A stretch of DNA of 35,089 bases. Source: Planctomycetes bacterium DG_23. Its GTDB lineage: Bacteria > Planctomycetota > DG-23. The position numbers and the translations under genes were made by a program. Below are positions 474-26,719 of the stretch, one piece after another. Numbering within the stretch: the first letter of the stretch is position 1; each line of letters begins with the position of its first letter. The stretch lies in assembly GCA_001302825.1 (NCBI GenBank), contig LIZR01000006.1:1-35089 (forward strand), given 5' to 3'. The notes below the pieces were generated by a model. It was not told where the DNA came from. It made no database searches and was given only the letters and a program-made list of their open reading frames with translations.

Positions 474-3089
474 TTAAATACTTTTCCTATACCTTCTCAT
501 AAGCAGCGAATTGGAGACCACCGAGACCGAACTGAAGGCCATCGCTGCACCAGCGATCATAGGGTTTAATAAGAATCCAGTAAAGGGGTAAAGAACCCCA
601 GCGGCGATAGGAATACCGGCTGAATTGTAAAAAAATGCCCAGAAGAGATTCTGTTTTATCTTTTTCATTGCATAGCGAGATAAGTCCATAGCCATAACCA
701 CATCTCTGAGGTCGTCTTTGATGAGCACGACATCGCCCGACTCAATGGCCACATCCGTTCCGGTGCCGATAGCCAGGCCAATGTCAGCCTGAGTTAGAGC
801 CGGGGCGTCGTTTATGCCATCGCCGACCATAGCCACTTTCAGCCCTTCCTCTTGAAGTTTCTTAATTTCTTGGGCCTTATTTTGTGGAAGGACTTCGGCA
901 AGGACTCTATCGATACCGACCTGCCTGGCTATGGCCTCTCCGGTCCGTTTATTGTCGCCGGTTATCATAATGACTTGCTTACCCATCTCTTTGAGCTTTG
1001 CCACGGCTTCTTTAGAAAATTCCTTCAAGGTGTCAGCAACGGCAACCATCCCCAGCAGTCTGTGATTGGTGGCGAACAACATCACCGTTTTGCCTTCGCC
1101 TTGCAATCTTTCCAGATCCTGGGTAGCCCCGGATATATCTATGTTTCTATCTTCCATCAGGCCTCTATTGCCCAGTAATATCTCATCACCGTCAATTTTG
1201 GCCGCAACCCCTCTGCCGGTCATGGATGCAAAATCACGCACATCCCGCAATCGCACATTCTTTTGCTGGGCCGCCTTTACGATGGCTTCGCCAAGCGGGT
1301 GCTCAGAATTTTTCTCTACCGAAGCGGCTAAAGACAAAACTTCTTCTTCAGGCACGCCGTAGGCTATAACATCGGTTAATTCAGGTTGACCTTTGGTTAA
1401 GGTGCCTGTCTTATCAAACACTATGGCATTGATTTGGTGAGCGTTTTGCAATGACTCTGCGCTTTTTATCAATATGCCGTTTTCCGCACCTATTCCCGTG
1501 CCTACCATAACCGCCGTTGGGGTAGCCAGGCCCAGGGCACAAGGGCAGGCGATAATCAATACCGCGATAAATATGGTTAAGGCGAAGAGGAAATTTGCAC
1601 CCGCAAGCAACCACACAACGAAAGCCACAGTCCCGATAATAACCACTGCTGGAACAAAATAGGCGGAGACTTTATCGGCAAACTGCTGAATGGGAGCTTT
1701 GGAACCCTGGGCTTCTTCGACAAGTTTTACAATCTGGGCTAAAGCGGTATCTTTGCCGACTTTGGTGGCCTTGAATTTGAAACTTCCCGTCTTATTTATG
1801 GTGGCGCCGATGACCTCGCTTCCTTCGGATTTTTCAACCGGGATGCTTTCACCGGTAATCATCGATTCGTCAACGCTTGAATATCCTTCTGTTAATATTC
1901 CGTCAACAGGAATTTTCTGACCGGGCTTAACAATAACAATATCGCCAACTGTCATTTCTTCCACGGGAATTTCTTGCTCCTGGCCATTTCTCAGGACAAA
2001 GGCGGTCATTGCCTGAAGCCCCATAAGTTTTCTAATGGCTTCTGAGGTTTTGCCTTTGGCAATAGCCTCAAGTAGTTTACCCAAAAGAATGAAAGCGATG
2101 AGGAATCCGGCAATTTCATAATAGAGATTTCGCATAGTGAAAGCAGTACTGCCTAACCACATAGCCGCTGAAACATATAAACTGTAGAGATAAGCCGCAC
2201 CCACCCCTAAGGCCACCAGGGTATCCATATTGGCGGTTTTAGTTTTAATTAGTGCCAAAATCCCCCTGGTGAAAAATTGATAACCGGCAAGCATAATAGG
2301 GGTGGCCAGAAGGAACTGTATAAGTGCCATATGTTGTATCATAAATGGAGCAAGGGGAAGTTTGAGTCCAGTAGCCATAGCAAAATACATAAGTGGAGAT
2401 GCCAGGATGATAGATATGGTGAATCTAATCTTAAGGGACCTAACTTCCTTTTGTCGCGCTTCTTTTTCTGCATCGACCGTAACTTCTTCTTCCTCAATAG
2501 GCGTGTAACCCGCCGCTTTTATGGTTTCTTTGATCCTATCCGAGGACAAAACCGAACTGTCGTAATGGATGGTCGCTTTTTGGTTAACAAATAGGTCTTT
2601 TTTTACTATGCCGTGAAGGCTTCTTAGAGCGCCGTCTACTGTGCCCAGGCAATGGGGATTATCCATACCAATAACTTTAAGTTTTAAAGTGGCTTTACCT
2701 TTAACTTCGGGAGTTTCCTTGGGCTCGATGGTTTTGTATCCGGCCTGAGCAATGGTTTGGTGCAACTCGTCCAGAGTAGTCTTTGCGGGGTCATATTCAA
2801 CATAGGCCTTTTCGCTGCTGAAGTTGACCCTGGCGTCTGATACTCCGGGAGTTTTTTTTAGTGCATTTTCTATGGTTAGCACACAACTTGCGCAATGCAT
2901 ACCTACGATGCCAATTATGGCCCTATTTTTGGAAGGCAGTTGGGCTTGGGGTTTGAGTGGCTCTTCTTTCTTGCCCAAGAACTTATCCCGGCAAACCTTG
3001 CTGCAAAAAAAATAGACTTCGCCGTCTTTTTCTGCCTTGAGGGCTTTTCTTTCGTCTACTTCCATTCCACAAATGGGGTCCTTGGGCAT
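474..3089 (-). CDS. copA: Copper-translocating P1B-type ATPase with N-terminal YHS/TRASH domain and two HMA-like domains
   Basis: KDPICGM...YFFCSKVC (YHS/TRASH), GMHCASC (HMA), [33 protein letters not shown] and MAFSS motifs of the Cu(I) P1B-1 subgroup. Confidence 0.95.
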
Positions 3090-16813: not shown

Positions 16814-17131
16814 ATGGAAATGGAAGATTTCCCTCATCGTTTGGTTGCCGACTATTTTGCCGCTTTATCTCATCCTATAAGGGTCAAAATCCTGGAGCTA
16901 TTAAGGGATGGCGAGTGTTGCGTGTGCGAGATTTTCCCGGCCATAGGCGCTGAGCAGTCTAATACCTCCCGCCATCTGGCGGTGCTGCGTCGCGCGGGGA
17001 TTTTGAAAGAACGCCGGGAGGGGGTAAAAGTATTTTATGCGGTAGCAGATAAAAAGGTTTTTGGCATTATCGATGCCGCAAAAAGAATAAGCGGGCAGCA
17101 AATATTAGCCCGGGCTGAGGCCTTGAGGTGA
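16814..17131 (+). CDS. arsR: ArsR/SmtB family metalloregulator
   Basis: ALSHPIRVKIL, ECCVCEI metal box, QSNTSRHLAVLR helix-turn-helix; directly upstream of acr3. Confidence 0.9.
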   Translation: MEMEDFPHRLVADYFAALSHPIRVKILELLRDGECCVCEIFPAIGAEQSNTSRHLAVLRRAGILKERREGVKVFYAVADKKVFGIIDAAKRISGQQILARAEALR

Positions 17132-17244
17132 ATTCGAGATGTTTCTGGGAAAGGAAAGATAGCGCTGTATAAAACGGCGGTCTTAACAAAGTTGATTTTT
17201 ATTCTTATAAAAGTTTTGAGAATGCCGAAAAAGGAAACGATGAC

Positions 17245-18426
17245 ATGCAAGGAAAGTCACACCGGGTTGAACGAAGGCTGACGAGCTTTGAAAAATACCT
17301 CAGCATCTGGGTAATTCTTTGTGTCCTTACCGGCATATTGCTTGGCCGCTTAGCGCCGGGGGTGGCCAGGTCTCTCGATGGGCTGGCCATATATGTCAAA
17401 GGGGCCCCTGTAGTCTCTATCCCCATCGCTGTTTGTCTATTTTTTATGATGTATCCGATTATGGTAAAGGTAGATTTTGCCGCGGTGGCACAAGCAGGAA
17501 AAAACCCCAAACCGGTGCTTCTAACGCTCTTCGCTAACTGGGCCGTCAAGCCTTTCACAATGTATGCCATCGGTTTTTTCTTCCTCGGCGCCCTTTTTGT
17601 GGGCTTCATCGGCACCAGTGCCGTGGACTATGTCAAACTTCCTCCTGGCGCTGACTGGGCTGTTGGCAGCGTTCACGGAGCAGGTAAGGTAGTGATGCAC
17701 CAGAGTCTAAAGATGCTTGAGGTTCCTTTGTGGCGAAGTTACCTTGCCGGATGCATCCTCCTGGGGATTGCTCCCTGCACGGCGATGGTGCTGGTTTGGG
17801 GGTACCTGGCCAGGGGGAATGATGCTCACACTCTGTTAATGGTGGCCATTAACTCTTTGTCTATGCTCGTACTCTACGGGCCGCTGGGCGGCTTTCTGCT
17901 TGGTGTGGGTCGGCTGCCCGTTCCCTGGCAGGCACTGCTTCTTTCCATTACCATCTATGTTGCGCTGCCTTTGGTGGCCGGATATTTCTCGCGCCGGTGG
18001 ATTATCAAGACTAAAGGCCGGGAGTGGTTCCAGCAGAAATTCCTGCATCTTCTTACGCCGGTAGCCATCATCGCCCTCCTCGTTACCCTGGTTCTCCTGT
18101 TCTCCTTTAAAGGAGAAATCATCCTTGGACAGCCCCAGACCATCCTCTGGATTGCCGTTCCCCTTTTTATTCAAACCAATCTCATCTTCTGGATGACCTA
18201 TGGTTTAGCAAGGCTTCTAAGGCTATCGTATGAAGATTCAGCACCTTCAGCGATGATCGGCGCGTCCAATCATTTTGAGGTGGCCATCGCCACAAGCACT
18301 ATGCTCTTCGGCCTGGCGAGTGGTTCATCGCTGGCAACAGTTGTGGGTGTGCTCATTGAAGTACCAGTAATGCTGATGTTGGTCAAGATTTGCTTGAGAA
18401 CTCAAGGGTGGTTTTCCCGTAGTTAA
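17245..18426 (+). CDS. acr3: Acr3 family arsenite efflux transporter
   Basis: [50 protein letters not shown]. Confidence 0.95.
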
Positions 18427-18532: not shown

Positions 18533-19432
18533 TCATTCAGATTTAATAATTTTTTCTACAATTTTTTCAAGCGCCCGGGCAGCGAGATTCTGAGCATAGA
18601 AGAGGCTGTAAGGTTTACCTTCATCGCAGGCCGTTACTATAGCTGGGTCCATAGGGAGCCTCCCCAGGAAGGGTGCTCCCATCTCCCGGGCCATTCGCTC
18701 CCCTCCCCCGCTCTTGAAAGGCTCGATCCTCTTACCACAGTGAGGGCAAGTGAGACCGCTCATATTCTCTATAACTCCCACAAGCGAAAGATTAACCCGT
18801 CTGATGAACGAGATGCATTTACGCACATCCGATAGAGATATCTCCTGTGGCGTAGTCACAATAACGGCCCGGGCATCCGGGATAGCCTGGGCAATGGAAA
18901 GCGGTTCATCTCCTGTGCCCGGCGGCAAATCTATGACCAGATAGTCAAGCTCTTCCCATTTTACCTGGCCGATGAATTGCTTGATGGCGCTGCTTTTCAA
19001 GGGCCCACGCCAGATTATGGCATCATTTTCACTTTGCAGCAAAAAACCAATAGATACGATGCTCAATCCATCCAGCAGTTTGGCCGGAGTCATCAAGCCT
19101 TCTTTCGAGCCGAGCCGGGCCCGGTCCAGGCCTAACATTTTCGGGATGGAAGGCCCATGCAAATCCACATCCATAAGACCGACTTTAAATCTCCTCTTAG
19201 CAAGCCCTACGGCCAGGCTGCTGGCAATGAAGCTTTTGCCCACACCTCCCTTACCACTTATTACCATTATCTTATGTTTAATATGTTGGAGGCTTCTCTG
19301 AACAGCACGATTCAATTGATTGAGGTCAGACGCTCCGGTCGGGTAAGACTGACTGGCAGAGGGGGAGGTTCGCTCTCTTGCTTTGTTTTTCATATTAGGC
19401 ACTGCCCTTTCTTTCCGGGAAGGTTCATTCAT
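18533..19432 (-). CDS. mrp: Mrp/ApbC/NBP35 family Fe-S cluster carrier ATPase
   Basis: SGKGGVGKS, DVDLHGPSIP, WRGP, DLPPGTGD, VTTPQ, ENMS, CPHC; start uncertain (19432, 19402 or 19393). Confidence 0.93.
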   Translation of the reverse strand: MNEPSRKERAVPNMKNKARERTSPSASQSYPTGASDLNQLNRAVQRSLQHIKHKIMVISGKGGVGKSFIASSLAVGLAKRRFKVGLMDVDLHGPSIPKMLGLDRARLGSKEGLMTPAKLLDGLSIVSIGFLLQSENDAIIWRGPLKSSAIKQFIGQVKWEELDYLVIDLPPGTGDEPLSIAQAIPDARAVIVTTPQEISLSDVRKCISFIRRVNLSLVGVIENMSGLTCPHCGKRIEPFKSGGGERMAREMGAPFLGRLPMDPAIVTACDEGKPYSLFYAQNLAARALEKIVEKIIKSE

Positions 19433-20165
19433 CTACTTTTCGGGCTGCAGTAATGATGTCTTTTCTTAGAATCTCACTGTCACAGCGCAGTCCTTCGGGA
19501 AGCGGAATCGGCCTTGCTCCGCAGGTTTCTTCTCTCATCAAACTAAAGCCTTGCTGAAGCAAAGCCTCTTTGAAATCTTTCTGCCTCCAAGGGAAATGTA
19601 TCTCCTTCATCTCCCATGCGCAGTCCAGCTCTTCGTATTTAGTGAGAAATTCCATAGCGTCAGAAATATCCAGACGGTACTTATTTTCAGAAATCTGCTC
19701 CAGTTGGATAGGCCTGCCCACAAACTTTTCGGCAAAGCGCAAAAGCCTTTGCTTTGGTCTTTGGTCTTCGAACTTAAAGGTGACCTGACTGGGCTTTGGC
19801 CGCAAGTGGTCTTGGATTATGAGGATTCCTCCAGGCTTAAGCACGGAATGTGCTATTTCGATGGACCTTAAGCCGGCGTCCTCTCCGTTTATGGAAATAA
19901 TCTCGTGCAATACCTTTATAAGAAGGGCCGAATCGATTGAATTTTCAAGGAAGACCTGAGCCTGGGCAGGGGCAACAAGGAGCGCTACATTGGGCAGTCT
20001 TTTTCCCTTTGCGGCGTGAACCTTTTCCCAAGAAATATCCAGTCCTACAATCAGACTATCTGGAAATGATTCCTGCAGCTTCTGCAGAATAGCGCCACCA
20101 CCACAGCCAAATTCCACAATCTTCCCGGGTTGAATGAGGTCGTAGAAGCCAGCCAATTTTTCCAT
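19425..20165 (-). CDS. Class I SAM-dependent methyltransferase, substrate unknown
   Basis: IVEFGCGGG motif I, VGLDIS, VLHEI, VLKPGGILII. Confidence 0.85.
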   Translation of the reverse strand: MEKLAGFYDLIQPGKIVEFGCGGGAILQKLQESFPDSLIVGLDISWEKVHAAKGKRLPNVALLVAPAQAQVFLENSIDSALLIKVLHEIISINGEDAGLRSIEIAHSVLKPGGILIIQDHLRPKPSQVTFKFEDQRPKQRLLRFAEKFVGRPIQLEQISENKYRLDISDAMEFLTKYEELDCAWEMKEIHFPWRQKDFKEALLQQGFSLMREETCGARPIPLPEGLRCDSEILRKDIITAARKVDE

Positions 20166-20206
20166 TTGTGGTCATCTCCGCAGCTCTTCTTGAAAAACCA
20201 CCCTCA

Positions 20207-20446
20207 TTATCTAACACAAGTCCCATCGGAACAAGGTGGCACGGCGCAAGGTGTATCGCGCCCGCAGCAGGTGCCTCCTGCAATTGAGGGGCCTGACTTG
20301 ACAGAAACGGAAGGCACGGAAATGAGTTTGGCCAGCCTCTTGCTTCCGCAGGAAGGACAAGCCGGCTTTTCCTGCGCATTCACTTTCTTTTGAAAAACCT
20401 CGCTTACCTTGCCGCAATCTTCACATTTGTATTCGTAGATAGGCAT
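20207..20446 (-). CDS. FmdB family zinc-ribbon protein with Cys-rich tail
   Basis: MPIYEYKCEDCG...CPSCGS..L.KLIS; tail CCGRDTPCAVPPCSDGTC; start moved to ATG 20446 (GGAG upstream). Confidence 0.9.
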   Translation of the reverse strand: MPIYEYKCEDCGKVSEVFQKKVNAQEKPACPSCGSKRLAKLISVPSVSVKSGPSIAGGTCCGRDTPCAVPPCSDGTCVR

Positions 20447-20481
20447 TTTTGGCTGTCTCCAAGAATTGGTTTCGCCAGGCT

Positions 20482-20814
20482 TCAATGCTCACAGATGTTT
20501 TCTTCCAAGGCCAGAGTTCCTTGAAGATGTTGCCTTACCAGTTCCTCAGGCTCAAGGTTCGGTGCACCGGTGAGCACCTTTATTCCATATTGAGCAAAGA
20601 TATCCAAAGCGCGAGGACCTATTCCGCCAGTGATAACCACGTCCGTTTCCTGTTCCTTAAGCCACTTGGGAATGACCCCGGGGGCATGCGGAGGCGGGTT
20701 ACACCTTTCACCTGCCTTGAGTTTTCCTTGTTCAATGTCGAAAAAGGCAAAATAGTCGCTGCGGCCGAAATGAGGAGAAACTCGCCCTTGTATAACGGGA
20801 ACGGCTATCTTCAT
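20482..20814 (-). CDS. NifB/NifX (MTH1175-like) metal-cluster-binding protein
   Basis: MKIAVP...SPHFGR, NPPPHAPG, DVVITGGIGPRA, C-terminal NICEH. Confidence 0.9.
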   Translation of the reverse strand: MKIAVPVIQGRVSPHFGRSDYFAFFDIEQGKLKAGERCNPPPHAPGVIPKWLKEQETDVVITGGIGPRALDIFAQYGIKVLTGAPNLEPEELVRQHLQGTLALEENICEH

Positions 20815-20827
20815 CTTCTTCTCCCGG

Positions 20828-21637
20828 CTATTTTTGATAGCCTGCTTTTTTCAAAACTTTAGTTGCGGAAACATACGCCGGCGAATCCTCCGGTAAATCC
20901 AGAAGGGATTCTCCTTCTATAGTGCGTCTGGCCACCTCTTCATCTCTGAAGACACTGCCCAAAAACTTCGTCCCCTCGGGCAGCATCTCGGCCGCTGGCT
21001 CTGTACCCTGGGGAAAGATGTGATTGGCGACTATATAGAAATTTTCCGTGTGGATGCCGATGGCGCCGATGAGTCTCTTGGAGCGGCTAATATTGGCGAA
21101 GGATTTTTTCGTCCCGTCAAGGATGGCAAAGATGCTTTCCACCTGCGTGGTGATTCTGCGATTGAGGTGTTCCAATCCCGCGGGCGAATCAATTAAGGTG
21201 AAGTCATAATGCGGGGAAATCTTCTCCATCAAGGCCTTCAGCCAGTGATTGGGAAGACAGTAGCACCCGGCTGTCCACTTGGCCCCCAAGGCGAAGAAAT
21301 CAAACCCCGGCCCTTCGTAGAGGCCTCCCTGGTGAAATAGAAACTCAATCTGGTCGGGCCGTGCTGGTATGGCCTTGCCCACGCTCTCATCCACTGCCGC
21401 GTCCCTGACATCGAAGATTATCTCGGATACGGTCCTCACACCCTCTTTTTCCAAATCCACACCGAGCATCATGGCCAGGGATTGGTCCGGGTCGGCATCA
21501 ACCGCCAGGATGCGCTTCGCATCCTGAGGATGCTCAGCATCCGAAGGGCGCTTCCCATCGCGTAGATATTTGAGTGCCAGAGCAATAAAACTCGTCTTGC
21601 CCACGCCCCCTCTTCCTGTTGAAACAAGTATTCCCAT
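20828..21637 (-). CDS. CooC-like (nickel insertion / CODH maturation) MinD-type ATPase
   Basis: GRGGVGKTS, AVDADPD, GCYC metal motif, IDSPAGLEHLNRR; start ATG 21637 or TTG 21646. Confidence 0.85.
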   Translation of the reverse strand: MGILVSTGRGGVGKTSFIALALKYLRDGKRPSDAEHPQDAKRILAVDADPDQSLAMMLGVDLEKEGVRTVSEIIFDVRDAAVDESVGKAIPARPDQIEFLFHQGGLYEGPGFDFFALGAKWTAGCYCLPNHWLKALMEKISPHYDFTLIDSPAGLEHLNRRITTQVESIFAILDGTKKSFANISRSKRLIGAIGIHTENFYIVANHIFPQGTEPAAEMLPEGTKFLGSVFRDEEVARRTIEGESLLDLPEDSPAYVSATKVLKKAGYQK

Positions 21638-21678
21638 ATTGGGCAAATCCCCTCAAATGGACTTAGGCCAAAAATAGA

Positions 21679-21707
21679 ATTATATCATATATAGCCCTCT
21701 TTGTCAA
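21679..21707 (-). promoter_or_regulatory. Consensus sigma70 promoter upstream of the cooC-like gene
   Basis: Exact TTGACA-N17-TATAAT with TG extension on the minus strand. Confidence 0.8.
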
Positions 21708-21733
21708 TACACTCGTTGACGAGGAAAAGCGGC

Positions 21734-22417
21734 TTAGCCTTTTAGTTCTTTGAGTCTTTTCCTTATGGCCTCTAATTGCTGTTCGAGCATTTGGGCCTGC
21801 TGCTGGAGAAAGGCAAGTTCCTGCTCCGGGGACATCTGAGGCTGGGCTCCTGGCTGCTGGAATGCACCGGGGGCGGCCATCATTCCTCGACCCATTCCCC
21901 CACCCATACCGCGGCCCATACCTCTACCCATACCACCACCTCGACCCATACCGCCACCCATACCCATACCGGCGCCCATACCCATACCTGGAGCGAAAGG
22001 CATTTGGGTGCTAGGTTGGCCTGGGCCACTTGCCGGCTGGCCGGGAGCACCCGTGCCCATACCAAAATGGCCGGGCACATTGGGCTGTGAGGCAGCCCCT
22101 AAACTCCCTTTCTTGAAGGATTCAATTGCCTGCCGAACGGTGCCGGAAGCGCCGATAACCACCTGGATGCCAGCGGCCTGCAAGGTGCGGTAGGCGTTGG
22201 GTCCGCAATTGCCAGTGATGACCGCTTCAACATCGTTTTCCGCTATAAGTTGGCCGGCCTGAATGCCTGCACCGCCGCCCGCTGTGGCATAGGGATTTTG
22301 CGTAGCCTTGAAGTCAAGCGATTCAGCGTCAGCAAAGATGAAATACTGACATCTTCCAAATCTCGGATCTACCTGGGCATCCAGGTCAGCCCCGGTTGAT
22401 GTAACGCAGATTTTCAT
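21734..22417 (-). CDS. NifB/NifX domain + Gly/Met/Arg-rich linker + DUF5320-type C-terminal coiled coil
   Basis: MKICVTSTG...VDPRFGRC, GGAGIQA, VITGNCGPNA; GMG(R/G) repeats; tail MSPEQELAFLQQQAQMLEQQLEAIRKRLKEL. Confidence 0.9.
   Translation of the reverse strand: MKICVTSTGADLDAQVDPRFGRCQYFIFADAESLDFKATQNPYATAGGGAGIQAGQLIAENDVEAVITGNCGPNAYRTLQAAGIQVVIGASGTVRQAIESFKKGSLGAASQPNVPGHFGMGTGAPGQPASGPGQPSTQMPFAPGMGMGAGMGMGGGMGRGGGMGRGMGRGMGGGMGRGMMAAPGAFQQPGAQPQMSPEQELAFLQQQAQMLEQQLEAIRKRLKELKG
21884..21988 (-). repeat. Imperfect coding tandem repeats encoding GMG(R/G/A)
   Basis: Recurrent cccatac units on the plus strand. Confidence 0.8.
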
Positions 22418-22455
22418 ACTTAGACTCCTTTTTTTCTGAAGAACACTTCAGTGCA

Positions 22456-22492
22456 GCCGTCTGGAGGCAAAAATAATTCACCTCCAGGCGGC
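22456..22492. other. Intergenic stem-loop
   Basis: GCCGTCTGGAGG-N13-CCTCCAGGCGGC, 11 of 12 pairs Watson-Crick. Confidence 0.6.
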
Positions 22493-22498
22493 CTCCCT

Positions 22499-22879
22499 TC
22501 AGGAACCTTCCTCGGAAAGTTCCTTAATCCTGGCGTGGATGCTGTCAATCTGTTTTTCCAGGGCATCGGCCTGGGTCTTGAGGAATTCAAGTTCCTGTTC
22601 CTTGCTCATCCCGGGCCAGGCCCCGGGCGTAAATCCGGCGGCAAAAGGCGCCCCGGCAGAACCCGCTCCAGGCGTAAAGGCCGGATAAGGAACTTGCCCC
22701 TGCTGAACACTTTGCCAATAGGCTTGCGCCTGAGGTGTAGGCCACTGCCCGCTCGTCAGGAAACTCGCGCAGGGACCCAGGCCCGTAGGGCTTCTTCCTA
22801 TCCAGCCCGGGCTAAACCCGAAGCGCATCCAGCCAGGAAGTCCGGTGAGTTGGTACATCCACCTATATCCGCCCGGCAT
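22499..22879 (-). CDS. DUF5320-like protein (TGLPGW motif + coiled coil)
   Basis: YRWMYQLTGLPGWMRFG; tail MSKEQELEFLKTQADALEKQIDSIHARIKEL; SD AGGAGGGTG. Confidence 0.85.
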   Translation of the reverse strand: MPGGYRWMYQLTGLPGWMRFGFSPGWIGRSPTGLGPCASFLTSGQWPTPQAQAYWQSVQQGQVPYPAFTPGAGSAGAPFAAGFTPGAWPGMSKEQELEFLKTQADALEKQIDSIHARIKELSEEGS

Positions 22880-22934
22880 GATTCACCCCTCCTTTCTTGC
22901 AAAACGAGTAAATTAATGTGCTAATGGGCATTTA

Positions 22935-23333
22935 CTACCACCAACGCCTCATACCGCGGCCTATGCCCATGCCTCGGCCTATGCCCATGCCTCGGCCTAT
23001 GCCTCTGCGCATACCGAGACCTAAGCGCGGCCGCATGAACCCCCCGTAATAGGGTGCATAAGGCAGCCCTCGGCCATAGCCAACAGGCATTCCAGCCGAG
23101 TAAGGATAGTCATAGGCGCCATATGCAGAAGGGTATCCTGCAGCCCCGTAGCCATAGGGATAGCCATAGGCGCCAGAGCCAGAAGGATATCCGTAGCCCC
23201 CTAACCTTCCCAGGGCTAACCCCCCGGGCATTGGATTGGCAAAGCCAGGCACAGGAAAACCAGCACAAAAACCTGCAGCCCTTCCCGTCATAGGTCCCAT
23301 ACCCCAGGGACCGGTTCCGTCTCCACCAGGCAT
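22935..23333 (-). CDS. DUF5320-like protein (N-terminal GTGP motif), Gly/Tyr/Arg low-complexity, no coiled coil
   Basis: MPGGDGTGPWGMGPMTGRAAGFCAG; YGYP repeats; GIGRGM tail repeats; start moved to ATG 23333 (SD AGGGGGTG). Confidence 0.85.
   Translation of the reverse strand: MPGGDGTGPWGMGPMTGRAAGFCAGFPVPGFANPMPGGLALGRLGGYGYPSGSGAYGYPYGYGAAGYPSAYGAYDYPYSAGMPVGYGRGLPYAPYYGGFMRPRLGLGMRRGIGRGMGIGRGMGIGRGMRRWW
22957..23003. repeat. Perfect 18-bp tandem repeat, about 2.6 copies (coding)
   Basis: cggcctatgcccatgcct twice, then cggcctatgcc. Confidence 0.9.
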
Positions 23334-23409
23334 TTCATTCACCCCCTTTCGCTTTCTGCACTAATCCTTTGTCGAGTCTCTTCTACTAAAGTGACCTGAA
23401 AACCGACAA

Positions 23410-23874
23410 CTATTCACGGGCATTGCGGCCAAAGCCAGCTCGCCCGCCTCCTCTGGCATACCCACGGTCCTCCTCGGCGCGACGGATGAAATTGCTTCCA
23501 CAATTGGGGCAATTTGCGGGCCTCGGCGTGCCGTAAGGAACCTCCCAGGAATGCCCGCAACCGCCGCATCCGAATTTCCTCATTGCCACCTCGTAATTTC
23601 CTCCTTGAATGCTTAATGCCTTGCCATTAATTAGCGCCTGGGCCACCTTCTTTCTCGCCTCTTCCACGATGCGCCCGAAAGTGGCCCGGGAGATGTTCAT
23701 CCTTCCCGCGGCCTCTTCCTGGCTTAAACCCATAAGGTCGGCCAGACGGAGCGCCTCCAGTTCGTCCACGGTTAGCCCAATTCTTTCTAACCCCTGCCTC
23801 CAAGGCCCCGGAGGGCCAAAGGAGTTATGTAAAGGCCTCCAGCCTACGCGCCGTCTTTTTCTTGGTCTGGGCAT
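23410..23874 (-). CDS. DUF134 (UPF0251) helix-turn-helix protein with C-terminal zinc ribbon and RG-rich tail
   Basis: MPRPRKRRRV, LTVDELEALRLAD.GLSQEEAA.RMNISRATF, ARKKVAQAL.GKAL.IQGG; then CGGCG...CPNCGS. Start moved to ATG 23874. Confidence 0.92.
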   Translation of the reverse strand: MPRPRKRRRVGWRPLHNSFGPPGPWRQGLERIGLTVDELEALRLADLMGLSQEEAAGRMNISRATFGRIVEEARKKVAQALINGKALSIQGGNYEVAMRKFGCGGCGHSWEVPYGTPRPANCPNCGSNFIRRAEEDRGYARGGGRAGFGRNARE

Positions 23875-23891
23875 AGCCACTCCAATAGTTT

Positions 23892-23938
23892 TGAGCATAT
23901 GCTCATAATAAGTATACCCTATGGATAGGCATTGTCAA
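23892..23938 (-). promoter_or_regulatory. Promoter and palindromic operator of the DUF134 gene string
   Basis: TTGACA-N16-TATACT (23911-23938) followed by the perfect palindrome TGAGCATATGCTCA (23892-23905). Confidence 0.8.
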
Positions 23939-23972
23939 GGCAAAAAATGGCAAAAAAATCCGAAAATTTTGT

Positions 23973-24017
23973 TTGACACGGAGGCGAAGCCACCATATAT
24001 TAGAAAATGCGAATATA
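23973..24017 (+). promoter_or_regulatory. Promoter and inverted-repeat operator of the second arsR-family gene
   Basis: TTGACA-N17-TATATT (23973-24001); inverted repeat TATATT-N10-AATATA (23996-24017). Confidence 0.65.
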
Positions 24018-24033
24018 CTAATAGGGTACCGCT

Positions 24034-24318
24034 ATGGAAGAAATGGTACAGGTCTTTAAGGCCCTTTCCTCTGAACAGCGGATGAGGATTGTTGAGGCCC
24101 TCAAGGAAAAGCCCCTTTGCGTTAACGCCCTGGCCACGAGGCTGGGTATGAGGCAATCGGCGGTTTCTCAGCATTTGCGCATCCTGCGTGCGGCAGGTCT
24201 GGTTAAGGGCGAAAAACAGGGCTACTGGGTTCATTATTCGCTGGATGGTCAAAAGCTTGAACGAAGTTTGCAATATATAAAGGAATTCTTAGGATTTGAT
24301 AATTTCCCCGGTATATAG
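24034..24318 (+). CDS. ArsR/SmtB family transcriptional regulator
   Basis: FKALSSEQRMRIV, LCVNALA, QSAVSQHLRILR, GYWVHYSL. Confidence 0.92.
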   Translation: MEEMVQVFKALSSEQRMRIVEALKEKPLCVNALATRLGMRQSAVSQHLRILRAAGLVKGEKQGYWVHYSLDGQKLERSLQYIKEFLGFDNFPGI

Positions 24319-24327
24319 AGTTCATCT

Positions 24328-24921
24328 ATGAATGTTCTGAAAAAATATTTAGTCCGCATGTGCGCAATTGTTGCTATCTATTTTGTGCTCGGGTTTGGTG
24401 CGCACCTCGTTGATGAGGTCTTGGATATGCCCCATCCTTATTGTGGACCACACACCTCCTGGTTTAGACTTGCACTTTACCGTGGAGTTCATCTCGGCAT
24501 TATCTTTGCAGCAGCGATATTTTTTATTGCCAATCTGAGTGTGGTCGTTGACTGGGTAAGGGCAACTGGCCCACGGCCATTGAGGGAAGACCTGGATATG
24601 GACTACTATCCCAGATTCTGGCAGGCGTCTCGCTGGCTGCGCTCCCGGCTTTCTCGGCTTGTGCTTATAGCCGGCTTTTTAGTCATCGTGGGCTACTGGA
24701 CAGCGACAATAATTTGGATTTGGGAGGCTGAGCAAAGCCCCCACGGAATGATCTCGCCTCCGCATCGGATATCATCCGTTATCTGTTTTGGTTGGAGTGT
24801 TGCTTGGTTGGCAGACTCACTGCAACGAAAAAGCAAGAGTACTGTTGTAGGTTCCGTACTCTTTATGATGCTGACTTCTTGGCAATTATATGTTGTCGGA
24901 GTGTATCCATTAGTGGGATAG
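24328..24921 (+). CDS. Hypothetical integral membrane protein
   Basis: About 5 hydrophobic segments; fills the gap between arsR2 and the ABC ATPase with short spacers; no family recognised. Confidence 0.65.
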   Translation: MNVLKKYLVRMCAIVAIYFVLGFGAHLVDEVLDMPHPYCGPHTSWFRLALYRGVHLGIIFAAAIFFIANLSVVVDWVRATGPRPLREDLDMDYYPRFWQASRWLRSRLSRLVLIAGFLVIVGYWTATIIWIWEAEQSPHGMISPPHRISSVICFGWSVAWLADSLQRKSKSTVVGSVLFMMLTSWQLYVVGVYPLVG

Positions 24922-24929
24922 AGGTGTGG

Positions 24930-25979
24930 ATGACAAGTGTGGGTAAAGAAGAATGGGCGATAGTTGTCTCGGGGCTTACTAAGCACTATGGCGAAGTCGT
25001 TGCCGTAGATGAAGTGAGTTTCAAGGTGCCTCAGGGCGAGATATTCGCCCTTTTGGGCCCGAATGGTGCCGGGAAGACTACTACTATCAGGATGCTGGTG
25101 GGTTTGAGTTGCCCGACCGCCGGTGATGCGCAGGTGGCTGGCTTTGGTATTGGGGCCGACCTGGTGAGGCTTAAAGAGACCGTCGGGGTGGTGCCTGAAA
25201 CCTCCAATCTTTACGAAGAACTGACGCTGCTGCAGAATCTTATTTTTATGGCTGAACTCTACGGAGTTCCCAGGGGCGAGCGCCGAGGGCGTGCGGAAAG
25301 GCTTCTGGCAGAATTTGGGCTTCTGGATATGCGGGAGACAATATTCAGGAATCTTTCCCGGGGTTTTAAGCGCCGGCTAACCATTGCCGCAGCGCTTATC
25401 CATTCCCCTCAGGTGCTTTTTCTGGACGAACCTACGCTGGGTCTGGATGTGATGGCGGCACGCAACTTGAGGGAGATGATTCGAGAACTCAATCGTGACG
25501 GCACCACGGTTTTTTTGACCACCCATAACATCCCTGAGGCTGAGGCCCTGGCCAACCGCGTAGGCATCATCGTTAAAGGACGACTCATTGCGCTTGAGTC
25601 ACCGGAAGCACTCAGGCTCAAGGCCCAGGCCGCCACCATTATTGAACTTAATCTGGAGAGGCTGCCCGAACCGGTCATTGAAGACTTTTCCGCCCTCCCC
25701 TTTGTGAGCCAGGCTTATAAGGAAGGCGATAGTCGTCTGCGGGTCGTTCTTGAGGAGGTTACCTCCCCGGCCCGAGAAGCCCCGGCCGGGCCGGCAGGCA
25801 TATACGAGGTCATTCAATTGGCGCAAAGTAAAGGCCTTAGGATTCGGTCGTTATCCACGATAAGGCCGACATTGGAAGACGCCTTTGTGCAACTGACCGG
25901 CGTTGAAGCAGAGGTAATGAGGATGGATAAGGTTTCCTCTCCGGGCGCAAGGCCGGGAAGTTCTGGAGGCGGAGATTGA
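24930..25979 (+). CDS. ABC exporter ATP-binding subunit (DrrA/NodI-like)
   Basis: GPNGAGKTT, LSRGFKRR signature variant, LFLDEP, TTH, PTLEDAF; start moved to ATG 24930 (SD GAGGTG). Confidence 0.93.
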   Translation: MTSVGKEEWAIVVSGLTKHYGEVVAVDEVSFKVPQGEIFALLGPNGAGKTTTIRMLVGLSCPTAGDAQVAGFGIGADLVRLKETVGVVPETSNLYEELTLLQNLIFMAELYGVPRGERRGRAERLLAEFGLLDMRETIFRNLSRGFKRRLTIAAALIHSPQVLFLDEPTLGLDVMAARNLREMIRELNRDGTTVFLTTHNIPEAEALANRVGIIVKGRLIALESPEALRLKAQAATIIELNLERLPEPVIEDFSALPFVSQAYKEGDSRLRVVLEEVTSPAREAPAGPAGIYEVIQLAQSKGLRIRSLSTIRPTLEDAFVQLTGVEAEVMRMDKVSSPGARPGSSGGGD

Positions 25980-26719
25980 TTCTTAATCAATTAGCGAAGA
26001 GTTTCCACATCGCCAGGAAAGATATCCGGGCGTACTATCTCAAACCGCCGCTAATTACCTGGGGGCTTATGTTTCCGGCAGTGATTATCCTGGCGATGTA
26101 TCTCAAGGACCCGCAGGGAATCCAAAGGATAGCCCCGGGGCTCATTGCGATGACGCTTCTTTTCGGCAATACTTCAATGGCGGCCATTGTAGTTACCTTT
26201 GAAAAGCGGATTGGGGCCCTGGAAAGACTTCTTCTGGCGCCGGTTTCCCGGCCTGCGCTAATCGGGGGTAAGGTAATGAGTGCGGCGGCCTTCGGGCTGC
26301 TCACCAGCACCATAATCAGCATAGGCTATATTGTTATTTTCAAGCATATGCCGCTTAGGCCGGGGCTACTGGCCTTAACGCTTCTTTTAGGGTCGGTTCT
26401 TTTCGCTTCCTTAGGGACATTCATATCTCTTGCCGTCAAGGAAGTCTTTGAGGCTATGACTGTATGCAATTATGTGCGGTTCCCTTTAATTTTTGTAAGT
26501 GGCGTATTTACGAGCATAAAGGTTTTACCGCGGCCTCTTCTGCCCATTGCCTACATTTCGCCTCTTTCCTATGCGGTAGATGGGGTGCGGCAGTCTTTTG
26601 CAGGTGAAGGAGGAATTTTTCCCATCTATCTTGACCTGATATTGCTTGCCTTATATGGATGTCTATTTTTCGTTCTTGCGGTATGGGGCTTAAAGAGGCG
26701 AATTCAAAAGGAATACTGA
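25976..26719 (+). CDS. ABC-2 type permease
   Basis: About 6 TMs, EKRIGALERLLLAPV, FVSGVF, SPLSYAVDGVR; 4-bp overlap with the ATPase gene. Confidence 0.92.
   Translation: MILNQLAKSFHIARKDIRAYYLKPPLITWGLMFPAVIILAMYLKDPQGIQRIAPGLIAMTLLFGNTSMAAIVVTFEKRIGALERLLLAPVSRPALIGGKVMSAAAFGLLTSTIISIGYIVIFKHMPLRPGLLALTLLLGSVLFASLGTFISLAVKEVFEAMTVCNYVRFPLIFVSGVFTSIKVLPRPLLPIAYISPLSYAVDGVRQSFAGEGGIFPIYLDLILLALYGCLFFVLAVWGLKRRIQKEY

Follow-up and report, generated by a model that had tools for sequence, protein, structure and literature searches.

A planctomycete operon joining Gly/Arg-tailed NifX-like and DUF5320 proteins to Mrp-type carriers: a possible IssA/ORP-type system for handling metal-sulfide clusters

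A stretch of 35,089 nucleotides of Planctomycetes bacterium DG_23 (assembly GCA_001302825.1, contig LIZR01000006.1, positions 1 to 35,089; referred to below as the window) carries nine co-oriented genes, here g1 to g9, which run on the minus strand from 23898 down to 18533 with intergenic gaps of −8 to 87 nt (Table 1). An original prediction made from the sequence had described this operon as encoding low-complexity Gly/Arg/Tyr-rich proteins together with metallocluster chaperones, and had proposed that the former assemble into a scaffold or condensate that concentrates cluster carriers. All of the open reading frames (ORFs) were found where the prediction had placed them, and Pfam and NCBIfam profile scans of the window ORFs bore out its gene identities.

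Table 1. Genes of the operon and candidate promoter sites (positions in the window; HTH, helix-turn-helix; RG, Arg-Gly; SAM, S-adenosylmethionine)
Feature	Position	Strand	Assignment and features
g1	23410..23898	-	DUF134 (PF02001) 84.3 bits; sigma-70 region 4-like HTH, CxxC...CxxC zinc ribbon, RG-rich tail
g2	22935..23333	-	DUF5320 (PF17253) 47.6 bits, profile positions 1-62 only
g3	22499..22879	-	DUF5320-related, 26.1 bits against a cut-off of 27, profile positions 19-99
g4	21734..22417	-	Nitro_FeMo-Co (NifX-like, PF02579) 89.9 bits and DUF5320 (PF17253) 42.1 bits, profile positions 13-99
g5	20828..21646	-	CbiA/MinD-type; CooC-like P-loop ATPase, Cys-x-Cys motif (GCYC)
g6	20482..20814	-	Stand-alone NifX-like (PF02579) 69.7 bits; TM1816/PH0822 type
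g7	20207..20485	-	FmdB zinc ribbon, Cys-rich tail; Zn_ribbon_8 61.7 bits, TIGR02605 61.1 bits
g8	19425..20165	-	Class I SAM-dependent methyltransferase; Methyltransf_11/25/31
g9	18533..19432	-	ParA/NUBPL (Mrp, PF10609) 325.2 bits; Mrp/NBP35-type Fe-S carrier ATPase, CPHC motif
Promoter candidate upstream of g1	23911..23938	-	Sigma-70-like: TTGACA, 16 nt, TATACT; 11/12 consensus positions
Promoter candidate 2, between g4 and g5	21679..21707	-	TTGACA, 17 nt, TG-TATAAT; 12/12 positions

The fourth gene, g4, combines an ORP/MTH1175-type NifX-like domain (residues 1–115), a Pro-rich linker and GMGRG repeats (119–196) and a coiled-coil helix (197–226). Its NifX-like domain, like that of g6, passes the PF02579 cut-off of 26.3 bits, and its best solved relatives are MTH1175 (1EO1, E 5.3e-19) and the orange protein (ORP) of Desulfovibrio gigas (2WFB, E 7.9e-19); no NifX or NafY structure is among the eight structure matches of the domain. 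In an AlphaFold2 model the per-residue confidence score (pLDDT) is ~97–98 over residues 1–110, 41–50 over residues 121–190 and 91–96 in the blocks covering the helix 197–226; the tail is predicted to be disordered between a confident NifX-like fold and a confident terminal helix. The tail (119–196) has 29 Gly, 9 Pro, 4 Arg, 3 Phe and zero acidic residues among its 78 positions, with an isoelectric point (pI) of 12.0. All three Cys residues of g4 lie in the globular domain and none in the tail, and in an alignment of 45 family members C23 of the NifX-like domain is invariant and C71 at least 90% conserved.

This fused architecture is widespread: 6137 homologues were found at E ≤ 0.001 among 8000 scored candidates. 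Of the 120 listed, the anchor at the end of the NifX-like domain is present in 116, together with the coiled-coil motif in 97, and 27 carry an extra ferredoxin motif. The tails of these 97 proteins (median length 81 aa) are 36% Gly, 13% Met, 12% Pro and 6.5% Arg, with Arg strongly favoured over Lys (518 versus 71 residues); at least three GxGR motifs are present in 81 of them, and 92 have more positive than negative charges. Weak matches (E 0.002–0.006) were also obtained between the RG repeats of g4 and the RG-rich tail of ribosomal protein S10 of eukaryotes, a low-complexity effect. Within the organism's own assembly (2.02 Mb, 84.6% complete) such repeats are rare, since at least four GxGR motifs occur in three of 14,427 six-frame ORFs, namely g2, g4 and a DUF5320-type ORF on another contig (C69, see below). 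The Gly fractions of g4 (0.20) and g2 (0.30) exceed the 99th percentile of 0.163 for 2312 own-genome ORFs of at least 150 aa, and the low-complexity composition of the two proteins is beyond chance.

The two genes upstream of g4 encode related tails as separate proteins. Like the tail of g4, g2 passes the PF17253 gathering cut-off of 27 bits; it consists of an N-terminal motif of ~35 residues with the single Cys of the protein, a Tyr/Gly/Pro-rich middle, GxGRG repeats (GIGRGMG repeats among them) and a C-terminal RRWW, with neither a coiled coil nor a globular domain. Its composition is 30% Gly, 11% Tyr and 9% Arg (pI 10.05), and 22 of its 132 residues are aromatic. The AlphaFold2 model, with a mean pLDDT of 45.6 and zero residues at or above 70, predicts that g2 is disordered throughout. 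Conservation is concentrated in the N-terminal motif, where residues 1–37 hold 25 of the 30 invariant alignment columns. We found 2769 homologues of g2, and the closest five (P0121–P0125) have its architecture and ending in common. Among the best 120 listed stand-alone homologues the N-terminal motif occurs twice in 101 and once in 19, a narrow coiled-coil pattern is matched by 20, the median pI is 10.1, and an aromatic residue lies within the last three positions in 93.

The g3 product begins with a strongly conserved region of ~60 residues rich in Trp, Pro and Gly, continues in a Pro/Gly/Ala linker and ends in a heptad coiled coil. Its PF17253 score is just below the cut-off, and many of its listed homologues bear a precomputed PF17253 label; it has both the C-terminal coiled coil and the TGLPGW-type motif of full-length DUF5320 members. 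The hydrophobic positions of its helix (L97, L100, A104, L107, I111, I114, I118 and L121) are spaced 3-4-3-4-3-4-3, identically to those of the C-terminal helix of g4. Of 758 candidates, 754 were homologous to g3 at E ≤ 0.001, and the matches listed below the self-match are 57–89% identical over 88–100% of the query, with 36 invariant columns in the alignment. The possibility that g2 and g3 are halves of one broken DUF5320 gene was ruled out, as they lie in different reading frames and many full-length homologues have the same ends; because each has many homologues with invariant columns of its own, they represent two genuine subfamilies. A g2-like protein (P0122, 77% identical) and a g3-like protein (P0242, 89% identical) come from the same source, whose longest contig is 3368 bases, which suggests that the pair may be adjacent in a relative too. 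Searches of the ESM Atlas with g2 and g3 returned DUF5320 clusters only, with no structural lead at TM ≥ 0.5, and a literature search for the term DUF5320 returned only mentions with no bearing on the present question. Complex predictions that paired g2 residues 1–45 with the two NifX-like domains (g4 and g6) scored 0.02, the mark being 0.32, and are not taken as evidence for or against binding. The original prediction had assigned low-complexity regions to the first four products of the operon; the motifs that it quoted are present in g1, g2 and g4, but g3 (entropy 3.92 bits) is not of low complexity over most of its length.

Sulfur globule proteins (SGP, PF17228), which are secreted envelope proteins of sulfur oxidisers, resemble DUF5320 proteins in their Gly/Tyr-rich repetitive composition. 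One DUF5320 protein of the sample described below (L069:9992-10396) exceeds the SGP cut-off (28.4 versus 26.7 bits), a match that is probably compositional and due to Gly/Tyr repeats; g2 has no match to PF17228 at E ≤ 0.01.

A survey of DUF5320 neighbourhoods across genomes placed these proteins in a recurrent genetic context. The sample, with one genome per species, comprised 79 loci corresponding to the best 80 of 369 confirmed matches, chosen for their resemblance to the N-terminal motif. The loci represent Aenigmatarchaeota, Bathyarchaeia, Hadarchaeota, Atribacterota, Bacillota, Planctomycetota, Omnitrophota, Chloroflexota, Actinomycetota, Deltaproteobacteria, Leptospira and further groups; the family search also gave matches in Methanosarcina acetivorans and Thermotoga maritima. 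Linkage was counted in the 74 loci that hold an ORF with the DUF5320 N-terminal motif, from first-round phmmer matches only, because iterated profiles mixed the NifX-like and P-loop families through MrpORP-type fusions; as contig ends cut many loci, leaving a median total flank of 12.6 kb, the counts are minimum values. In 61 of the 74 loci DUF5320 has a NifX-like gene within 2 kb, always on the same strand, and in 67 it has one within 5 kb. For Mrp/MinD-type P-loop genes the corresponding counts are 31 and 46, for DUF134 19 and 22, and for FmdB 18 and 22. More than 7 kb away from DUF5320 (169.5 kb in total) there were two NifX-like, one P-loop, three FmdB and zero DUF134 matches. NifX-like genes of the g4 type (ORP/MTH1175) are present in 72 of all 79 loci and those of the g6 type in 42. 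DUF5320 is thus tightly tied genetically to genes for NifX-like and Mrp/MinD proteins across many anaerobic phyla of bacteria and archaea. Had this linkage, or the conservation of the low-complexity regions in homologues, been lacking, the original prediction would by its own terms have been refuted; both are present.

A Pfam check of 141 ORFs from nine diverse loci gave a consistent picture, with DUF5320 in all nine, at least one NifX-like gene in eight and at least two in seven; the locus without a NifX-like call (L024) had its gene displaced by ORF picking, and phmmer found the gene there. MinD-like ATPases with 4Fe-4S domains occur in eight of the nine (L064 is ambiguous), full-length Mrp in five, DUF134 in five, Methyltransf_11 in three and Fur in two. 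Other neighbours include NikR, a CDF transporter fused to a NifX-like domain, ZIP, ZnuA, and NifU, thioredoxin, radical SAM and metallo-beta-lactamase genes, and in a deltaproteobacterial locus (L069) a PAS-type, OrpR-like sigma-54 activator lies beside DUF5320. L005:2163-3551 adjoins DUF5320, with a ZIP transporter and a thioredoxin nearby. A zinc-ribbon module (CxCPSCG...CPxCG) follows RG repeats in a NifX-like protein (L009:10914-11486), in a DUF134 protein (L059:990-1424) and in the ORF on contig C69. Since RG tails are found on a NifX-like domain, on the DUF5320 N-terminal motif and on DUF134, they behave as a portable module within this system.

At the other end of the operon, g9 and g6 correspond to the two parts of MrpORP (NF041136). 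The g9 product matches model positions 1–251 with 378.7 bits, under the cut-off of 450 because the C-terminal domain is missing, and g6 matches positions 265–365, the C-terminal domain of MrpORP, with 112.3 bits (E 2.9e-32); MrpORP is therefore split into two genes here. The closest solved relatives of g6 are PH0822 and TM1816 (E 8.6e-15). Residue 19 of g6 is Ser; in at least 90% of 25 aligned relatives this position holds the Cys of the HFGHCE-type motif of the MrpORP C-terminal domain. A C-terminal Cys (Cys108) is retained in g6.

The remaining members of the operon have a looser connection with DUF5320. The best solved relative of g5 is CooC1 of Carboxydothermus (3KJE, E 1.8e-11), with which it aligns over its full length with the P-loop kept and the Cys-x-Cys motifs (CYC) aligned. 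In contrast to CooC, g5 has no genetic association with carbon monoxide dehydrogenase (CODH), and it is 32% identical to another CooC of the same genome (contig C48), which sits beside cooS and acs; g5 is therefore a second, divergent CooC paralogue. Its orthologues in four related genomes (46–54% identity) stand in unrelated contexts, one beside an FAD oxidoreductase and one in a molybdenum hydroxylase cluster, and none of the four has a neighbour from the operon, a DUF5320 or NifX gene, or a Ni-CODH alongside. Selenocysteine in these orthologues was considered and rejected, the TGA in question being an ordinary stop codon. A g5-like gene lies within 2 kb of DUF5320 in one of the 74 loci (L061), and another is ~9 kb away in L074. 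For the methyltransferase g8, similar genes occur near DUF5320 in one of the 74 loci within 2 kb and in two within 5 kb. Class I methyltransferases as a whole lie within 5 kb in 15, a density similar to that of the far flanks (eight matches in 327 kb). A role for g8 in methylating Arg residues of the RG tails was set aside, as neither g8-like nor class I methyltransferases are clearly enriched near DUF5320; given that methyltransferases recur on contig C69 and in L024, L039 and L062, the idea keeps weak standing. The original prediction had listed both genes with the others of the operon. Conservation beside DUF5320 does not extend to the CooC-like gene, and the methyltransferase shows no clear enrichment there; we conclude that neither is a core part.

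The first gene, g1, is the only DUF134 gene in the assembly. Its product has a Zn_ribbon_8 match at residues 109–139, weak Pfam matches to sigma-70 region 4 and HTH families, and near its C-terminal end the sequence GYARGGGRAGFGR, followed by NARE. The Pfam match starts at residue 10 of the longer ORF, and an ATG at 23874 has a GGAG five bases upstream and gives an N-terminus of MPRPRK, so that 23874 is more likely than 23898 to be the true start. From its sequence features g1 is probably a regulator. One or more RG/GR motifs occur in the tails of 18 of the 26 DUF134 proteins from DUF5320 loci, and two or more in eight.

Elsewhere in the assembly, relatives of the operon genes are few. Both NifX-like domains of the genome are those of g4 and g6, and no nitrogenase family was found in the 84.6% complete assembly. 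The original prediction had pointed to the absence of a client enzyme, and none of the CODH, nitrogenase or hydrogenase families is indeed present among the window ORFs scanned; but contig C48 (2120–7160, L101) holds together a cooC, the only Prismane/CODH gene of the genome (cooS, 568.8 bits) and an acetyl-CoA synthase (ACS) subunit gene, so that outside the window the organism encodes a CODH/ACS and a CooC that belongs to it. Contig C69 (196–5941, L100) carries a second mini-cluster, in which a 73-aa ORF (PF17253 24.9 bits, below the cut-off) has the N-terminal motif as well as RG repeats and a zinc ribbon. The same cluster encodes three class I methyltransferases, a J-domain protein, FmdB, a ferredoxin and a fused double MinD-like ATPase with 4Fe-4S domains. 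A Pirellulales locus (L024) is similar to it, with a J-domain protein, two methyltransferases and MinD-like ATPases with 4Fe-4S domains.

The original prediction stated that it knew of no assigned function for such gene clusters, which overlooks two described systems, IssA of Pyrococcus with its IssX homologues (PMC5524996) and the Desulfovibrio ORP complex (PMC6345978). As described, Pyrococcus furiosus IssA (PF2025; UniProt Q8TZG9 according to PMC8351635) has a NifX-like domain followed by a Pro-rich stretch and then by a Gly-rich tail that is cationic and aromatic, with a pI of 10.7; the protein binds thioferrate, assembles into particles of 20–300 nm and reconstitutes ferredoxin, and the apo protein is monomeric, oligomerising only with Fe-S bound (PMC5524996). 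Its single Cys is in the tail, 14 of 70 tail residues are aromatic, and acidic residues are proposed to be used (PMC5524996). The same account assigns MTH1175 to the IssA clade and defines IssX as an uncharacterised clade of non-thermophilic homologues with Gly-rich, high-pI tails (PMC5524996). Compared by description, g4 resembles IssA in its N-terminal NifX-like domain (IPR003731/PF02579), whose nearest solved relative is MTH1175, and in its Pro-rich stretch followed by a disordered, Gly-rich cationic tail based on Arg (pI 12.0 versus 10.7), and both proteins occur in anaerobes; the description of IssX, likewise compared as published, fits g4. In contrast to IssA, the tail of g4 is Met-rich, with three aromatics in 78 residues and without Cys, and a conserved coiled coil closes it; Cys residues are kept in the globular domain of the g4 family, and the tail also exists here as separate genes (g2 and g3) with a conserved N-terminal motif that is not described in the excerpts of the IssA paper.

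The ORP complex of Desulfovibrio is described as consisting of Orp3, 4, 5, 8 and 9 and is discussed as putatively involved in cell division; MrpORP passes Fe-S clusters to ORP partners and localises to the cell pole, and ORP homologues carry a non-covalent S2MoS2CuS2MoS2 cluster (PMC6345978). The operon shares with the complex of Desulfovibrio vulgaris Hildenborough an ORP-type NifX-like protein (g4), Mrp (g9) and a second NifX-like domain (g6); most DUF5320 loci, and contig C69, also encode MinD-like ATPases with 4Fe-4S domains. It differs in the splitting of MrpORP into g9 and g6 and in the location of the MinD-like 4Fe-4S ATPases outside the operon. Low-complexity tails and DUF5320 find no mention in the excerpts of the ORP papers available to us (PMC6345978, PMC8359166). 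Desulfovibrio orp operons are also reported to depend on sigma-54 and OrpR (PMC8359166), whereas the g1–g9 operon has neither a sigma-54-type promoter nor an activator: no sigma-54-type site with up to two mismatches lies in 23899–24033 upstream of g1, and the 25 matches in the whole window are not above those in shuffled sequence (17.1, SD 4.2). Control of this kind was thus rejected for the present operon.

By analogy with these systems, we propose that the operon encodes an IssA/ORP-type metal-sulfide cluster handling system of a strict anaerobe, in which cationic tails hold anionic metal-sulfide on NifX-like domains; we assign this reading a probability of roughly 0.45. The ORP/MTH1175-type domain of g4 would nucleate or hold anionic inorganic metal-sulfide species, either an Fe-S polymer resembling the thioferrate of Pyrococcus IssA or a thiometallate cluster like that of the orange protein. 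The cationic disordered tails, which owe their charge to Arg and are rich in Gly/Met or Gly/Tyr, form part of g4 itself and are provided in trans by g2; they would wrap and neutralise this material, and the C-terminal heptad helix common to g3 and g4 could multimerise the assembly. The Mrp protein g9 with its detached NifX-like partner g6, together with the CooC-like g5, may move clusters or metal in and out, and g1, a DUF134 protein with the same kind of RG tail, may regulate the operon. The overall task of the system would be to buffer, store and deliver Fe-S or a related metal-sulfide in an anaerobic cytoplasm rich in sulfide. Systems of this kind are in that case most likely already known, the operon being an extension of them rather than something wholly new; the element that is new relative to IssA and ORP is a conserved, detachable Gly/Arg tail family (DUF5320) with an N-terminal motif and a coiled coil of its own.

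Several points weigh against this proposal. Its mechanism rests on analogy, since the present data comprise sequences and models. The comparison of g4 with IssA, tail and clade included, was made by published description. The features by which the two proteins differ matter here: the Met-rich tail of g4 with its 3 Phe in 78 residues and no Cys, a coiled-coil end that the excerpted IssA paper does not mention, and conserved Cys residues (C23, C71) in the NifX-like domain as opposed to the single tail Cys of IssA. The role of IssA is itself disputed, as thioferrate-like iron is reported also in ΔIssA cells and detoxification has been proposed in place of storage (PMC8219758). The IssA/ORP model leaves the strongly conserved N-terminal motif of DUF5320 unexplained, and the MinD-like 4Fe-4S ATPases typical of ORP systems are encoded on contig C69 and not in the operon.

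A first rival is the proposal of the original prediction, a protein-only condensate. In that account the Gly/Tyr/Arg-rich proteins self-assemble and concentrate Mrp, CooC-like and NifX-like carriers with no inorganic organiser. The predicted disorder of all of g2 and of the g4 tail is in its favour, as are the likeness of the Tyr/Gly and RG composition to eukaryotic FET-type low-complexity domains, from which the idea started, the multivalency offered by the coiled coils, and a DUF134 protein whose similar tail could co-partition. However, tail composition varies by subfamily, being Met-rich with next to no aromatics in g4 and Tyr/Phe/Trp-rich in g2-type proteins, and charge-based binding of a common anion therefore fits better than a shared sticker grammar. 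IssA, the one characterised relative, is moreover reported to assemble only around bound Fe-S, a precedent that points to tails binding an inorganic, anionic Fe-S polymer (PMC5524996). A storage or scaffold role thus has a published precedent, but this precedent does not extend to phase separation by protein alone, and we regard a protein-only condensate as unlikely. Another account is a buffer of soft metals or thiometallates in place of an iron-sulfur store. Here Cu(I), Ni or Mo/W-Cu thiometallates would be the ligands of the ORP-type domain and of the GMGRG tails with their many Met residues, for detoxification or for delivery to enzymes such as CODH/ACS. Listed g4-family tails are 13% Met, the g4 domain matches the orange protein (2WFB) as well as MTH1175, ORP homologues are reported to bear a Mo-Cu cluster (PMC6345978), g5 keeps the Ni-binding CxC motif of CooC, the genome has a CODH/ACS, and NikR, Fur, CDF, ZIP and ZnuA genes adjoin DUF5320 in some loci. 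Yet Met enrichment is limited to the fused, g4-type subfamily, g5-like genes are rare by DUF5320 (two of the 79 loci, L061 and L074), the CODH has a cooC of its own, and Mrp and the MinD-like 4Fe-4S proteins point to Fe-S, so that a soft-metal role appears quite improbable.

The neighbouring genes bear on two further accounts. DUF5320 might be an adaptor that links a cargo, such as an Fe-S storage body or the division site, to positioning MinD/Mrp-type ATPases, in the manner of McdB, for which an invariant C-terminal Trp is reported to be needed for cargo binding and condensate formation (PMC11321042). DUF5320 proteins resemble McdB in being disordered, basic and often coiled-coil, in their C-terminal aromatic residue (Trp in g2; within the last three residues of most listed stand-alone homologues), and in adjoining pairs of MinD/ParA-family ATPases; the polar position of MrpORP and the putative part of the ORP complex in cell division are compatible with such a role (PMC6345978). 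The likeness is nevertheless one of analogy, with no sequence relationship to McdB and no microcompartment genes, the linkage is stronger to NifX-like domains (67 of 74 loci) than to ATPases (46 of 74), and the neighbouring ATPases are of Fe-S carrier types, their motifs (CxxC in Mrp, CxC in g5, 4Fe-4S in the MinD-like proteins) indicating cluster chemistry; we consider an adaptor of this kind rather improbable. Alternatively, the RG/RGG-like tails and the HTH of DUF134 might form a DNA- or RNA-binding regulatory module with the metallochaperone genes as its regulon, an idea in keeping with the sigma-70 region 4-like HTH, the basic character of the proteins (pI ~10) and the weak match of the g4 repeats to the S10 tail. 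This last match is a low-complexity effect, DUF134 accompanies DUF5320 in 22 of 74 loci compared with 67 of 74 for NifX-like genes, and in thousands of proteins the tail is fused to a cluster-binding NifX-like domain; nucleic-acid binding is in our view very improbable.

Elements of the metal-sulfide and positioning accounts can be joined in a bolder reading, which is a long shot. DUF5320, the tailed NifX-like proteins and the MinD/Mrp-type ATPases would together build and position a membrane-less body of Fe-S mineral and protein. In such a body the tails would template the metal-sulfide polymer and the coiled coils crosslink it, the N-terminal motif and the C-terminal aromatics would dock it to ParA/MinD-like ATPases much as McdB does, and DUF134 would sense its filling state through its own RG tail. 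Were this true, many phyla of bacteria and archaea would share a "ferritin of the anaerobic world" that has positioning machinery of its own.

Some further features of the locus are recorded here. Sigma-70-like sites are not in excess in the region (4 versus a shuffle mean of 5.0), and the two promoter sites in Table 1 are for that reason listed as candidates only; the second suggests that g5–g9 could be transcribed separately. On the opposite strand, ORFs at 22451–22924 (+, 157 aa) over g3 and 21776–22090 (+, 104 aa) over g4 are shadows of repetitive, GC-rich coding sequence and unlikely to be genes. A divergent set lies beside the operon at 24034–26719 (+), comprising an ArsR-family regulator, an unassigned membrane protein, an ABC ATPase and an ABC-2 permease; in a Hadarchaeota locus (L039), ABC-2, ABC ATPase, HTH_20 and methyltransferase genes are directly upstream of the DUF5320 gene. 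The window also encodes a P1B-type ATPase with YHS and HMA domains (474–3089, −) and an ArsR regulator followed by an SBF/ACR3-type transporter (16814–18426, +).

The storage, buffering and trafficking of iron and sulfide in strict anaerobes are poorly understood. To our knowledge, no Fe-S store other than IssA has been described, and the work on IssA concerns a single hyperthermophilic archaeon. The uncharacterised families discussed here are very large, with more than 6000 homologues of the fusion, more than 2700 of g2-type DUF5320 and 754 of the g3 type, and they span many anaerobic bacterial and archaeal phyla. Their Gly/Arg tail is portable, occurring fused to a NifX-like domain, as a stand-alone protein or on a regulator, and is tied to ORP-type genes. 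If these tails bind thioferrate-like material, DUF5320 and DUF134 would gain a function, and IssA-type storage would be a general anaerobic strategy rather than an oddity of the Thermococcales.

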